From Escherichia phage DCP2, in sequence record OR780565.1: 64,000 bases of DNA, one strand, 5' to 3'. Both the position numbers and the translations under genes were made by a program. The notes under the pieces are model-generated. The model saw nothing but the letters and a program-made list of their open reading frames with translations. It ran no database searches and was not told where the DNA came from. This document shows, piece by piece, positions 7,057 to 22,385 of this stretch (positions within the stretch are counted from its first letter, which is position 1; every line of letters begins with the position of its first letter).

Positions 7057-7239
7057 ATGGAATTGGTAAAGGTAGTTTTTATGGGGTGGTTTAAGAATGA
7101 AAGCATGTTTACTAAAGAAATCACAATGATGAAAGACGACGTTCAATGGGCTACTACTCAATATGCTGAAGTTAATAAAGCATTAGTTAAAGCTTTCATT
7201 GATGACAAGAAAGTATGCGAAGTGGATTGCCGAGGATAA
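7057..7239 (+). CDS. dmd: Dmd (antitoxin of RnlA/LsoA-type host toxins), 60 aa
   Basis: 60 aa ORF immediately downstream of gene 41 with GAGGAG RBS; sequence and position match T4 gene 61.5 as remembered. Confidence 0.65.
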   Translation: MELVKVVFMGWFKNESMFTKEITMMKDDVQWATTQYAEVNKALVKAFIDDKKVCEVDCRG

Positions 7240-7858: not shown

Positions 7859-8152
7859 ATGAAAAAATTTGTTTTTGCTGCAATTTTTGCTTTAGCTTCT
7901 TGTGCTGCTCAGCCTGCTATGGCAGGTTATGATAAAGATTTGTGCGAATGGTCTATGACTGCAGATCAGACTGAGGTTGAAACTCAGATTGAAGCAGATA
8001 TTATGAACATCGTTGAGCGTGATCGCCCTGAAATGAAAGCTGAAGTACAAAAACAGCTTAAGTCTGGTGGTGTAATGCAGTATAATTACGTTCTGTATTG
8101 TGATAAAAACTTCAATAATAAAAATATCATCGCTGAAGTGGTAGGTGAATAA
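7859..8152 (+). CDS. sp: Spackle periplasmic protein (lysis inhibition/superinfection exclusion), 97 aa
   Basis: 97 aa with cleavable signal peptide (AQPAMA); position between 41 and 61. Confidence 0.7.
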   Translation: MKKFVFAAIFALASCAAQPAMAGYDKDLCEWSMTADQTEVETQIEADIMNIVERDRPEMKAEVQKQLKSGGVMQYNYVLYCDKNFNNKNIIAEVVGE

Positions 8153-8164
8153 TTAGAGGCTAAT

Positions 8165-8329
8165 ATGAAAACGTTTAAAGAATTTATTAAAGAAGATATG
8201 GTAGCTGGAGATTCAGGTGGTAATCCTGAAAATATCTCTACTGGAACAACGTCAGGCGCTGTAGTAAATAAAGGTCCTGAACAGATTCCTAAAAAGAAAA
8301 AAGAGGAATCTAAAGAAAAAGAAGAGTAA
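8165..8329 (+). CDS. small charged protein (54 aa)
   Basis: 54-codon ORF, Lys/Glu-rich C-terminus; below track cut-off. Confidence 0.45.
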   Translation: MKTFKEFIKEDMVAGDSGGNPENISTGTTSGAVVNKGPEQIPKKKKEESKEKEE

Positions 8330-8332
8330 AAA

Positions 8333-9361
8333 ATGTCATCAATACCTTGGATTGATAATGAGTTTGCATATCGTGCGCTAGCTCATTTACCTAAATTCAC
8401 ACAAGTAAATAATAGTTCAACTTTTAAATTACGGTTTAGATGCCCTGTTTGTGGAGATTCAAAAACCGACCAAAATAAAGCTCGTGGATGGTATTATGGC
8501 GATAATAATGAAGGAAATATTCATTGCTATAACTGTAACTATCATGCACCAATCGGAATATATTTAAAGGAGTTTGAACCTGATTTATATCGTGAGTATA
8601 TCTTTGAAATAAGAAAAGAAAAAGGTAAAAGTCGTCCAGTAGAAAAACCTAAAGAACTTCCTAAACAACCCGAGAAGAAAATAATTAAATCTCTTCCGTC
8701 ATGCATTAGATTAGATAAACTGACGGAAGACCATCCAATTATAAAATACGTAAAAGCTCGTTGTATTCCAAAGGATAAATGGAAATATCTTTGGTTTACA
8801 ACCGAATGGCCTAAATTAGTTAATAGTATAGCACCAGGAACATATAAAAAGGAAATACCTGAGCCTCGTCTTGTTATTCCAATTTATAATGCTAATGGAA
8901 AAGCTGAGTCTTTTCAAGGACGTGCATTAAAGAAAGATGCTCCTCAAAAATATATCACCATCAAAGCTTATCCTGAGGCAACAAAAATCTATGGTGTTGA
9001 ACGAGTTAAAGATGGTGATGTATATGTTCTAGAAGGACCTATAGATTCACTTTTTATTGAAAATGGTATAGCTATTACGGGTGGTCAATTAGACCTAGAA
9101 ATTGTTCCATTTAAAGATAGACGTGTATGGGTTTTAGATAATGAACCTCGTCACCCTGATACTATTAAACGAATGACTAAATTAGTTGATGCAGGAGAAA
9201 GGGTTATGTTTTGGGATAAATCTCCCTGGAAATCAAAAGATGTTAATGATATGATTAGAAAGGAAGGTGCAACCCCTGAACAAATTATGGAATATATGAA
9301 AAATAATATTGCCCAAGGGTTGATGGCTAAAATGCGGCTATCTAAATATGCTAAGATTTAA
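8333..9361 (+). CDS. 61: gp61 DNA primase
   Basis: 342 aa; N-terminal zinc ribbon CPVCGDS...CYNC; TOPRIM-like core. Confidence 0.92.
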   Translation: MSSIPWIDNEFAYRALAHLPKFTQVNNSSTFKLRFRCPVCGDSKTDQNKARGWYYGDNNEGNIHCYNCNYHAPIGIYLKEFEPDLYREYIFEIRKEKGKSRPVEKPKELPKQPEKKIIKSLPSCIRLDKLTEDHPIIKYVKARCIPKDKWKYLWFTTEWPKLVNSIAPGTYKKEIPEPRLVIPIYNANGKAESFQGRALKKDAPQKYITIKAYPEATKIYGVERVKDGDVYVLEGPIDSLFIENGIAITGGQLDLEIVPFKDRRVWVLDNEPRHPDTIKRMTKLVDAGERVMFWDKSPWKSKDVNDMIRKEGATPEQIMEYMKNNIAQGLMAKMRLSKYAKI

Positions 9362-9558
9362 ATTAATCCAACTAAAGCAAATGCTAAATCTACGAATGTA
9401 TCGAGAGTAATTACTGGAATACTAACGCCATGAGCAATAGCAATTGGCGATAAAATAAAGTTCCATAGTAAAATTCCTATCATAGCAGAAATAGTAAAAG
9501 CTATACGTTTTTTATTACCTTTTATGGCATTAACAAGTGCCATTAATTTTTGTACCAT
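9358..9558 (-). CDS. small two-helix membrane peptide (66 aa), convergent with gene 61
   Basis: Strong SD on minus strand (AAAGGAGGA, 6 nt spacer, ATG at 9558); two hydrophobic helices; stop overlaps gene 61 stop. Confidence 0.55.
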   Translation of the reverse strand: MVQKLMALVNAIKGNKKRIAFTISAMIGILLWNFILSPIAIAHGVSIPVITLDTFVDLAFALVGLI

Positions 9559-9607
9559 GCGTCGTCCTCCTTTAAATTAAATATTTATCGCAAATTTTAC
9601 AAAATTT

Positions 9608-9640
9608 GTTTACTTTCTCAGCTTGCTGTGGTATTATAAA
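9608..9640 (+). promoter_or_regulatory. T4-type early promoter
   Basis: GTTTAC 9608-9613, -10 TATTATAAA about 17 bp downstream. Confidence 0.6.
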
Positions 9641-9662
9641 ATAAACTGCTGAGGATAATATA

Positions 9663-11002
<1,340 letters not shown>

Positions 11003-16847: not shown

Positions 16848-18163
16848 CATTTGATGATTTGACCGAAGGCCAGAAAAATGCCTTTAACATTGTTATGAGG
16901 GCTATTAAAGAAAAGAAACATCATGTAACTATTAATGGACCTGCTGGTACTGGTAAGACTACTCTTACTAAGTTCATCATTGAAGCTTTAATATCTACGG
17001 GCGAAACTGGCATTATTTTAGCAGCTCCTACTCATGCAGCTAAAAAGATTCTTTCAAAACTATCAGGGAAAGAAGCGAGTACTATTCACAGTATTCTTAA
17101 AATTAACCCTGTAACATATGAAGAAAACGTTCTTTTTGAACAAAAAGAAGTACCGGATTTGGCTAAATGCAGAGTATTAATCTGTGACGAAGTGTCAATG
17201 TATGATAGAAAGCTATTTAAAATTCTGCTTTCAACTATCCCGCCATGGTGTACTATAATTGGAATAGGCGATAATAAGCAAATTAGACCTGTTGACCCAG
17301 GAGAAAATACTGCTTATATCAGTCCATTTTTTACGCACAAAGATTTTTATCAGTGTGAACTCACTGAAGTTAAACGCAGTAATGCTCCTATTATTGATGT
17401 AGCTACTGATGTTCGTAACGGTAAGTGGATTTATGATAAAATTATTGATGGGCATGGAGTACGTGGATTTACCGGTGATACCGCTTTACGCGATTTTATG
17501 GTAAATTATTTTTCAATCGTAAAATCACTAGATGATTTGTTTGAAAATCGTGTGATGGCATTTACGAATAAATCTGTTGATAAGTTAAATAGCATTATTC
17601 GTAAAAAGATTTTTGAAACTGATAAAGATTTTATTGTCGGTGAAATTATTGTAATGCAGGAACCATTAATTAAAACATATAAAATTGATGGAAAGCCTGT
17701 GTCAGAAATTATTTTTAATAACGGACAATTAGTTCGTATTATAGAAGCAGAGTATACATCAACATTTGTTAAAGCTCGTGGTGTTCCTGGAGAATATCTA
17801 ATTCGTCATTGGGATTTAACAGTAGAAACTTACGGCGATGATGAATATTATCGTGAAAAGATTAAAATAATTTCATCTGATGAAGAGCTGTATAAGTTTA
17901 ACCTATTTTTAGGTAAAACTGCAGAAACTTACAAAAATTGGAATAAAGGCGGAAAGGCTCCATGGAGTGATTTTTGGGATGCTAAATCACAGTTTAGTAA
18001 AGTGAAAGCACTTCCTGCATCAACATTCCATAAAGCTCAGGGTATGTCTGTAGATCGTGCTTTCATCTATACACCTTGTATTCATTATGCAGATGCTGAA
18101 CTAGCACAGCAGCTTCTTTATGTTGGTGTCACTCGTGGTCGTTATGATGTGTTTTACGTATGA
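16844..18163 (+). CDS. dda: Dda DNA helicase (SF1B)
   Basis: 439 aa; Walker A GPAGTGKT; near-identical to T4 Dda. Confidence 0.93.
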   Translation: MTFDDLTEGQKNAFNIVMRAIKEKKHHVTINGPAGTGKTTLTKFIIEALISTGETGIILAAPTHAAKKILSKLSGKEASTIHSILKINPVTYEENVLFEQKEVPDLAKCRVLICDEVSMYDRKLFKILLSTIPPWCTIIGIGDNKQIRPVDPGENTAYISPFFTHKDFYQCELTEVKRSNAPIIDVATDVRNGKWIYDKIIDGHGVRGFTGDTALRDFMVNYFSIVKSLDDLFENRVMAFTNKSVDKLNSIIRKKIFETDKDFIVGEIIVMQEPLIKTYKIDGKPVSEIIFNNGQLVRIIEAEYTSTFVKARGVPGEYLIRHWDLTVETYGDDEYYREKIKIISSDEELYKFNLFLGKTAETYKNWNKGGKAPWSDFWDAKSQFSKVKALPASTFHKAQGMSVDRAFIYTPCIHYADAELAQQLLYVGVTRGRYDVFYV

Positions 18164-18665: not shown

Positions 18666-19348
18666 TGTTTGATTTTATTATAGATTTTGAAACAATGGGA
18701 AGCGGTGAAAAAGCAGCTGTTATTGATTTGGCTGTTATTGCCTTTGACCCTAACCCAGAAGTAGTTGAAACATTTGATGAATTAGTTTCACGCGGCATTA
18801 AAATCAAATTTGATTTAAAAAGCCAAAAAGGACAACGTCTTTTTACTAAAAGCACCATCGAATGGTGGAAAAATCAGTCTCCTGAAGCTCGAAAAAATAT
18901 TGCACCGTCAGATGAAGATGTAAGCACTATCGATGGTATTGTAAAATTTAATGATTATATCAATGCGCATAATATCGATCCTTGGAAATCTCAAGGCTGG
19001 TGTCGTGGAATGTCGTTTGATTTTCCAATTTTAGTCGATCTCATTCGCGATATTCAACGTCTTAATGGCGTTTCTGAGAATGAACTTGACACATTTAAGT
19101 TAGAACCATGTAAATTCTGGAATCAGCGTGATATTCGTACCAGAATTGAAGCACTTCTCCTTGTTCGTGATATGACCACGTGTCCTCTTCCAAAGGGAAC
19201 TTTAGATGGATTCGTTGCACATGATTCTATTCATGACTGTGCGAAAGACATCCTGATGATGAAGTATGCTTTGCGCTATGCTATGGGTCTTGAAGATGCT
19301 CCATCAGAGGAAGAATGCGATCCTCTGTCTCTTCCAACAAAACGATAA
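18665..19348 (+). CDS. dexA: DexA exonuclease A (DnaQ-like 3'-5' exonuclease)
   Basis: 227 aa; DEDD-type motifs (FDFETMG); position after dda. Confidence 0.8.
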   Translation: MFDFIIDFETMGSGEKAAVIDLAVIAFDPNPEVVETFDELVSRGIKIKFDLKSQKGQRLFTKSTIEWWKNQSPEARKNIAPSDEDVSTIDGIVKFNDYINAHNIDPWKSQGWCRGMSFDFPILVDLIRDIQRLNGVSENELDTFKLEPCKFWNQRDIRTRIEALLLVRDMTTCPLPKGTLDGFVAHDSIHDCAKDILMMKYALRYAMGLEDAPSEEECDPLSLPTKR

Positions 19349-19354
19349 AAAGTT

Positions 19355-19385
19355 GTTTACTTCCTCAGTTAGTTGTGGTATTATA
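19355..19385 (+). promoter_or_regulatory. T4-type early promoter
   Basis: GTTTAC 19355-19360, TATTAT 19379-19384. Confidence 0.6.
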
Positions 19386-19411
19386 ACACCATAGCTACTG
19401 AGGATAATAAA

Positions 19412-19912
19412 ATGAAAATTTATCGTGTTGAATCATCGTTTAGTATTCTTGATTATGAAGATGCTATAACAATACGTCGAAATCTTTGTGTTCAAATAAC
19501 GCCGTACAGGAGTATAATAGATTCATGGAGCGAAGAGTGGCTATTACACGTAGGTTATGACAGACCTAATTTTATGCATCATAGCGATAATAATAAAAGA
19601 ATTCCTTTACCACACGAAGATAAACTATTAGTTAAAAACGCTAATATAGTAATTAATACTAAGTTCAAGAAAGATTATGTTGGATTAGAATATCATATTC
19701 CAGGATGGTTTATAGCTCTTTATCATTTTGCTTTCGCTAGTGAATATGATATGATGAGATGGTTCACACGAGAAGAGCGGGAAGAATTATCTTCTAAAGG
19801 ATTTTATCTCGCTGTATACGAAGTTCCAGATGATCAAGTTATCATTGGCGGGCACCAAGTAATGTTCCGCAAATCGCATGCTGAACTCATAGATTTTATT
19901 GAAATGAGATAA
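19412..19912 (+). CDS. hypothetical protein (166 aa)
   Basis: ATG after GAGGA RBS downstream of promoter (track start 19373 lies upstream of the promoter). Confidence 0.5.
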   Translation: MKIYRVESSFSILDYEDAITIRRNLCVQITPYRSIIDSWSEEWLLHVGYDRPNFMHHSDNNKRIPLPHEDKLLVKNANIVINTKFKKDYVGLEYHIPGWFIALYHFAFASEYDMMRWFTREEREELSSKGFYLAVYEVPDDQVIIGGHQVMFRKSHAELIDFIEMR

Positions 19913-22013: not shown

Positions 22014-22385
22014 ATGTTTAAAATTGGTAAGAAATATCGTGTTCGCGAAGGTGAAGAAAAGAAATATCTACTTTCTTCTATTTATAGGAATGGTTCTATT
22101 AATGCCGTAATATCTACAAGCGAATTTATCGTTGAAGATATGAAAGGCCATAATGTTACAATGATTAGTACAGCATCTGGAAATGATGGAAAAATTCTTC
22201 ACAGTTTTCAGAGTAATGTTCTAATTTATGATGAAGAATTTGACTTCTTCGAAGAAGTTCCTGAAGATTTTGATTTTGAATGCACTATCACTATGAAATC
22301 TGGTGACCCTCTTTCTTTTACAGTTAAAGATGAAAGAAGTCGCTTGAGAATTATTAGTCTCCTTCAAGCCATTAAATTTGAGTGA
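22014..22385 (+). CDS. hypothetical protein (123 aa)
   Basis: ORF packed tightly after the preceding gene. Confidence 0.5.
   Translation: MFKIGKKYRVREGEEKKYLLSSIYRNGSINAVISTSEFIVEDMKGHNVTMISTASGNDGKILHSFQSNVLIYDEEFDFFEEVPEDFDFECTITMKSGDPLSFTVKDERSRLRIISLLQAIKFE

Follow-up and report, generated by a model that had tools for sequence, protein, structure and literature searches.

A conserved 66-residue membrane protein gene convergent with the primase gene of T4-type phages, and its possible kinship with PF11351 holins

Escherichia phage DCP2 (record OR780565.1), of which we analysed a stretch of 64,000 nucleotides, called here the window, carries on the minus strand at 9358..9558 a gene of 66 codons that encodes a small membrane protein and runs head-on into gene 61, the DNA primase gene. 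This open reading frame (ORF) is a genuine, strongly conserved and vertically inherited gene of T4-type (Tevenvirinae) phages. The explanation that best accounts for the data as a whole, and to which we give slightly better than even chances, is that of a conserved late membrane-protein gene with holin ancestry and a role in the envelope or in lysis. A first-pass annotation made from the letters of this DNA had called the gene and had proposed that it may form a divergent toxin/immunity or exclusion pair with a nuclease-like neighbour; the gene call is correct and the functional pairing is mistaken. The gene is already catalogued (it is dam.1 of phage T4T, RB32ORF030w and phrog_2024) but uncharacterised. 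New are the probable assignment of a late promoter, the universal presence of the gene in its genus, its fixed convergent synteny with the primase gene, its division into two subfamilies and a link, plausible but unproven, to PF11351-type holins.

A conserved gene convergent with the primase gene

The reading frame opens with the ATG at 9558-9556 and is backed by the ORF listing, by homology and by the ratio of nonsynonymous to synonymous substitution rates (dN/dS). By tblastn the gene was found in 692 phage records, T4, T2, T6, RB3 and RB51 among them; about 500 of these matches show 88-100% identity and about 190, in Mosigvirus and Gaprivervirus, 46-54%. Copies at least 80% identical number 502 and records with a primase at least 95% identical number 501, which indicates that the gene is universal in Tequatrovirus, the genus of T4-type phages from which the region stems. 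Among the Tequatrovirus copies dN/dS is 0.09-0.17, synonymous changes being 2-3 times as numerous as nonsynonymous ones although synonymous sites are 3 times fewer. Between genera dS is saturated, dN is about 0.45 and the length stays at 65-66 amino acids. Homologs that keep the frame in related phages, on whose existence the first-pass annotation had made its gene call depend, are at hand: they are under purifying selection, of the same length and in the same place.

The product matches phrog_2024 over residues 2-66 (profile positions 1-65 of 65; E = 1.2e-30), and profile searches recovered the family also from T4-like phages of Klebsiella, Enterobacter, Citrobacter and Salmonella. Nearly all copies have 63-69 amino acids. 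In a 17-sequence alignment across the subfamilies W32, N33, P38, G44, P48 and G64 are invariant, and these residues are mostly kept in more distant members. The family comprises two subfamilies, one of each standing in tandem in Gaprivervirus. In phage VR25 of that genus (locus L005, 1995-2192 and 2201-2401), and likewise in loci L012 and L013, the tandem paralogs share 23% identity and only the first copy is preceded by its own late-promoter motif, NATAAATA. No paralog was found in the window by a scan of its six frames with a hidden Markov model (HMM); a 42-codon match at 19307-19432, considered as a candidate, was rejected: it lacks a start codon and is located where dexA ends (3') and the gene that follows begins.

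The position of the gene is as well conserved as its sequence. In the window the primase gene (8333..9361, plus strand, 342 amino acids) ends with TAA at 9359-9361, and the stop codon of the 66-residue gene is the complement of 9358-9360, so that both stops share the TTAA at 9358..9361, as the first-pass annotation had read. An identical 4-nt overlap is found in T4, in Mosigvirus, in Gaprivervirus and in two distant T4-like contigs. When 1.8 billion cluster representatives were searched exhaustively with an HMM, only 19 clusters were returned. Three of the four distant clusters with readable contigs (20-25% identity) have the gene convergent with the primase gene, usually with the same overlap of stops, on contigs that carry uvsX, 41, sp, 61, 56 and soc; the fourth is represented by a 2-kb contig, on which the homolog adjoins a RelA_SpoT gene. 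Length and primase-convergent place are thus kept by homologs at 20-50% identity. The upstream neighbour varies (dam in T4, a 186-amino-acid ORF in the window, gene 56 or small ORFs elsewhere), and the primase gene, invariably convergent, is the sole constant neighbour in T4-like phages.

Within the early region the gene stands alone on its strand, as had been claimed. The count was made on the annotated record of phage G28, in which the block from rIIA to gene 43 (27 kb) has 47 coding sequences on one strand and this gene as the only one on the other. The window is 100% identical to G28, and also to phages vB_EcoM_P8 and BMB16, over 9200-10400, and 90-99% identical there to about 500 further records.

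In the reference records of T4 (NC_000866.4 and AF158101.6) the 309 bp at 17626-17934, which separate dam from 61, carry no annotation. This gap holds the 66-codon dam.1 ORF (17724-17924 in T4T coordinates), whose product is 94% identical to that of the window. The record of T4T (HM137666) lists it as 'dam.1, hypothetical protein', and hundreds of relatives as RB32ORF030w or 'hypothetical protein'; phrog_2024, T4T dam.1 and RB32ORF030w are the same gene in the same position, and none of these entries assigns it a function, a class of promoter or a relation to another family. For a very large group of phages T4 provides the reference genome, and as the gene is absent from the RefSeq/AF158101 annotation of T4, omics studies and genetic screens that use this annotation miss it. 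It nevertheless occurs throughout Tequatrovirus, purifying selection acts on it, and in much of the enterobacterial Tevenvirinae its position relative to the primase gene is fixed.

Signals for expression and architecture of the protein

The first-pass annotation had pointed to a strong Shine-Dalgarno (SD) sequence and to a late-promoter-like motif before the gene, and both are borne out. The minus strand reads GATAAATAtttaatttAAAGGAGGAcgacgcATG around the ribosome binding site, with the SD sequence AAAGGAGGA at 9565..9573 separated from the ATG by 6 nt. The gp55-type motif GATAAATA lies at 9582..9589, 23 nt before the ATG, and the whole arrangement is GATAAATA-tttaattt-AAAGGAGGA-cgacgc-ATG. 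Placing the motif at -13 to -6 puts the predicted start of transcription at about 9576 and leaves a leader of ~18 nt. All the T4-like lineages that we examined have NATAAATA 20-31 nt upstream of the ATG, and a strong GGAG-type SD sequence follows it; the remainder of the spacer shows no conservation obvious to the eye. The motif opens with G in Tequatrovirus and with A in Mosigvirus; in Gaprivervirus and the distant contigs this base is C. The T4 late promoter extends from -13 to -6 and reads TATAAATA, and among T4-like phages the T of its first position, -13, is poorly conserved (PMC1524935); NATAAATA, with a variable -13 position, is also found in PMC2984593.

The distribution of the motif in the window points in the same direction. 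ATAAATA is present in 10 copies (at 9582, 11967, 22079, 33514, 36436, 40390, 40894, 45961, 48725 and 53301) against 37 ± 6 in shuffled sequences, a 3.7-fold depletion. Half of these copies lie 18-34 nt before the ATG that opens an ORF, namely the 66-codon ORF and the genes for soc, holin t, gp37 and gp34, the last four being known late genes; the copy before t reads AATAAATA instead of TATAAATA. The other five, for example those at 22079 (minus strand) and 48725 (plus strand), have no obvious ORF start downstream.

The 66-codon gene has the orientation of the late tail-fibre genes and of t, and the record of phage Lutter has an 8-bp promoter annotated at the site of the motif. From the conserved NATAAATA with its SD sequence, the depletion and placement of ATAAATA, the orientation and the Lutter annotation we conclude that the gene is probably expressed late, from a gp55-dependent start near 9576. 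The late RNA polymerase with gp55 and gp33, loaded by the gp45 clamp, would start at NATAAATA and produce an mRNA with a short leader and a very strong SD sequence. Because the two stops overlap, such a transcript would have to enter the primase gene at its 3' end, in antisense orientation.

In the sense of the primase gene, a terminator-like hairpin with a T-run is present at 9524..9553 (hairpin 9524-9543, plus strand), within codons 6-12 of the 66-residue gene. It is likely the end of the gene 61 transcript, and a terminator is annotated at this site in phage fPS-65. The hairpin is found in Tequatrovirus, including T4, and is absent from other genera, which makes it lineage-specific. We considered the possibility that the N-terminal codons are conserved by doing double duty as the gene 61 terminator; the confinement of the hairpin to Tequatrovirus rules this out, and the conservation of the protein is therefore not explained by it. 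A dual-start motif was likewise discarded, since neither Met1 nor Met6 is conserved outside Tequatrovirus and no SD sequence precedes Met6.

As to the protein itself, the claim of two hydrophobic helices holds in part. Residues ~19-42 form a clear transmembrane (TM) segment (Kyte-Doolittle hydropathy 2.0), and the second element is only a 12-residue helix, 52-63, short for one that would cross the membrane; in the subfamily of the window protein this segment is hydrophobic, in subfamily B weakly so. An AlphaFold2 (AF2) model built on the 17-sequence alignment has helices at 2-11, 15-42 and 52-63, with a mean predicted local distance difference test score (pLDDT) of 78 over the whole model. The TM helix carries the invariant W-N…P; D56 is the last charged residue of the protein, whose C-terminus reads ...FALVGLI. 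Trypsin would release a single usable peptide, LMALVNAIK, so that shotgun proteomes in which the protein is missing say little about its existence. The model and the hydropathy indicate that the product is most likely a small inner-membrane protein. It would insert in the inner membrane with its basic N-terminus (KGNKKR) in the cytoplasm, as the positive-inside rule predicts for this segment. Asn and Pro inside the membrane would suit the one long TM helix to self-association; a short loop with a conserved G..P and an acidic residue would follow, and then the short hydrophobic C-terminal helix, which would either re-enter the membrane as a hairpin or lie on its periplasmic face. The 66-residue protein had no match in the curated libraries Pfam, NCBIfam and PADLOC. 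When BFVD was searched by fold with the AF2 model, all matches were members of the same family, and one of them bears the automatic UniProt name 'Holin'.

Relation to PF11351 holins

The connection with holins runs through a second branch of the family, of 59-97 amino acids, which occurs in siphovirus-like phages and in Enterobacteriaceae prophages. These prophage-type homologs lie after the tail-tip gene, always together with soluble proteins of ~180-200 and ~105 amino acids, and in three of the four arrangements a gene for a T4-type lysozyme is found within 2 kb; one arrangement is a tight operon of the small TM protein, a 180-residue protein, a 109-residue protein and the lysozyme. By hhalign the T4-like subfamily is joined to the prophage subfamily at a probability of 98.8% (E = 1e-16), and the prophage subfamily to a profile of nine PF11351-type holins at 87.8% (E = 3e-6). 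Compared directly, the T4-like subfamily and the holins reach 54.6% (E = 1.2e-4). The direct alignment pairs residues 22-65 of the window protein with residues 82-128 of the holin, a stretch formed by its two final membrane helices and the connecting loop P..P.D/E.

Further matches lead to the same proteins. A tblastn search with a 96-residue family member matched two annotated holins near full length, and sub-threshold matches to PF11351 GTA_holin_3TM, phrog_3427 and phrog_11161, all of them holins, recur among family members. Six of the nine collected holins have an annotated endolysin, amidase, M15-peptidase or peptidoglycan-binding gene beside them. The similarity was also set against decoys, shuffled within 8-residue windows with the hydrophobic segments kept; with an HMM of the whole family, 0 of 1000 and 10 of 1000 decoys scored at least as well.

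In the profile-level alignment the PF11351 holins (the GTA-Hol family of TCDB) share with the 66-residue protein a helix motif of the type aromatic-polar-Phe, a Pro, the loop P..P.(D/E) and a final hydrophobic helix ending in Gly. They too are small phage membrane proteins, and distant relatives of the 66-residue protein likewise lie near endolysin genes. The differences concern the remainder of the molecule. PF11351 holins have 130-155 amino acids as compared with 66 here, and their N-terminal hydrophilic domain (~75 residues) is absent from our protein, which starts 18 residues before its TM helix. Their AGWRP-IGW motif is absent as well, a remnant, WRxGLGW, being present only in the prophage forms of 94-97 amino acids. 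Without the N-terminal domain, this motif and the basic C-terminal tail, the 66-residue protein is not a member of PF11351 by the features that define the family.

Several observations speak against holin ancestry or against a role in lysis. The window protein has no Pfam match at E ≤ 1, and the best family member in this respect, P0131, scores 20.3 bits against PF11351 (E = 8.5e-4), below the gathering threshold of 24.8 bits. Hydrophobic profiles are prone to false matches, and an HMM of the T4-like members alone was marginal in the decoy test, 19 of 1000 and 223 of 1000 decoys scoring at least as well (p ~0.02 and 0.22). A charged C-terminal tail is typical of holins (in PF11351 it is basic, MRSxDKxK), and the 66-residue protein lacks one. 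Holin genes generally adjoin an endolysin gene or share a cassette with it, which is not so for the 66-residue gene in any T4-like locus examined, where its neighbours are the primase gene plus dam, gene 56 or the 186-amino-acid ORF. The partners of the prophage-type homologs are soluble, and the larger of them weakly matches a 'minor tail protein' PHROG (E = 7e-8), which would fit a role other than lysis. T4 mutants null for t do not lyse, which argues against the 66-residue protein as a sufficient holin. A literature search on T4 ribosome profiling, maps of transcription starts, late promoters and dam.1 found no paper that treats the gene.

On balance, the profile comparisons tilt modestly towards true homology of the 66-residue family with PF11351 holins. 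The family would most likely descend from PF11351 '3TM/GTA-type' holins, of which it would have kept the two final membrane helices and lost the N-terminal domain and the basic tail.

Possible functions, alternative explanations and neighbouring genes

Lysis by T4 presumably rests on the atypical holin T, together with RI and RIII; we take holin T to be unrelated to PF11351, and we do not think that the 66-residue protein is a stand-alone holin. Since a sufficient holin is unlikely, the putative ancestry and the genomic contexts of the relatives lead us to favour an auxiliary role in the envelope or in lysis. Our guess, rated well below even, is a non-essential late envelope factor that acts on lysis timing, lysis inhibition or the late state of the membrane. 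The protein would probably oligomerise through its intramembrane Asn and would modulate the permeability of the membrane or the timing of T-holin-dependent lysis. A more specific form of this proposal, in which a universally conserved, late, stripped-down relic of a PF11351-type holin tunes the triggering of holin T, the inhibition of lysis or the energetics of the membrane late in infection, appears rather unlikely to us; were it true, an overlooked part of the best-studied phage lysis system would stand beside holin T, RI and RIII. Like Imm, Sp, RI, RIII and holin T, the 66-residue protein is small and predicted at the inner membrane or periplasm, and, like t, its gene is predicted to be a late one. 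It shares no sequence similarity with these proteins, as judged from the HMM scan of the window that found no paralog; RI, moreover, combines a cleavable signal-anchor-release (SAR) domain with a periplasmic one, and the periplasmic domain of T is large.

We considered the possibility that the protein acts late in exclusion or protection, by blocking entry of secondary phage DNA, by preventing lysis-from-without or by countering a membrane-acting host defence. A small membrane protein encoded in a region with sp (7859-8152) and, further on, imm would suit such a role, as would the prophages of E. coli and Raoultella in which the homolog is terminal, next to the attachment junction, a place typical of morons, and is sometimes followed by a gene with a RelA_SpoT domain. 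Yet Imm and Sp, the exclusion proteins of T4, are products of early genes, whereas the promoter of the 66-residue gene is of the late type; none of the models for defence or exclusion, those of PADLOC included, matched it, and the sole family-level similarity found is to holins. We regard this explanation as improbable. An anchor in the membrane or a helper in the assembly of virion parts is suggested by the siphovirus-like phages and prophages, in which homologs travel with the ~180-200- and ~105-residue proteins after the tail-tip gene and the larger partner has the minor-tail match cited above. That match is weak, however, and counterparts of the partners are not adjacent in T4-like phages, where only the primase gene is constant, so we give this reading a small chance. 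The ORF might also be incidental to a region that serves as terminator of gene 61 and as source of a late antisense RNA against the primase mRNA, given the hairpin inside its 5' codons and the overlapping stops that force a late transcript into gene 61. Against this stand the strong purifying selection on the protein, the amino-acid motifs kept at 20-25% identity where synonymous sites are saturated, the absence of the hairpin outside Tequatrovirus and the existence of prophage homologs with no primase gene nearby, and the idea is barely credible.

The pairing proposed by the first-pass annotation fares little better, though the observations from which it started were sound. An early-type T4 promoter (GTTTAC, 17 nt, TGgTATTAT) is present on the plus strand at 9608-9637, ~20 bp from the late motif, before the 186-amino-acid ORF (9663-10223, plus strand), and an early promoter is annotated there in the record of a relative; the two promoters are thus indeed back to back. 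The product of the neighbour indeed has the look of a PD-(D/E)XK nuclease, with an FD..x12..EIK motif and weak similarity to type II restriction enzymes (PADLOC REase_II, E = 7e-5; Pfam DpnII, E = 0.005). A divergent toxin/immunity or exclusion pair would nevertheless be expected to stay together, and the two genes do not: the 186-amino-acid ORF occurs in 163 phage records, including T2, against 692 for the 66-residue gene, and is absent from T4 (where dam follows directly), Mosigvirus, Gaprivervirus and the distant T4-like contigs, all of which keep the 66-residue gene alone. Its stop overlaps the start of dam (10223-11002, plus strand) in TAATG, so that it is translationally coupled to dam and not to the 66-residue gene, and the predicted timing also differs, early for the one and late for the other. 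The 186-amino-acid ORF is an accessory insertion, and we consider the pair most improbable. DpnII belongs to a family of GATC enzymes, and judging from its matches the ORF may encode a nuclease that is carried by the phage and coupled to Dam, the GATC methylase. A single-sequence AF2 model of it reached a pLDDT of 48, and a sequence search of the PDB gave no match.

If the conserved membrane protein does act late on the envelope, it would be a new and testable player in lysis, lysis inhibition or exclusion of T4. If it does not, there remain a correction to the annotation, the assignment of a late promoter and the removal of a false toxin/immunity hypothesis.

On the plus strand of the window the order of genes around the locus is dmd (7057-7239), a 61.4-like ORF, sp, 61.1 (8165-8329), gene 61, the 186-amino-acid ORF, dam and gene 56. 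At 8152-8165, between sp and 61.1, gene 61.2 (~600 bp) is missing from DCP2; T4 and G28 both have it, and the window is therefore not collinear with G28 at that point.

A few observations were made on the prophage-type relatives. In an Enterobacteriaceae prophage beside yegD/alkA, a 70-residue homolog is the last gene (E. coli contigs L026-L029, 8001-8213). The 97-residue versions in Raoultella (L035, 6001-6294) and in one metagenomic contig (L017) are directly followed by a gene with a RelA_SpoT domain, which may be a moron of the toxSAS type. Phage DCP80 (PQ671644, 141 kb, L037), labelled Gaprivervirus, is the only phage record with the 180-residue partner of the prophage type; tail tip, endonuclease VII and endolysin form in it a block of the siphovirus type that resembles the prophage lineage, which suggests a chimeric or mixed assembly.

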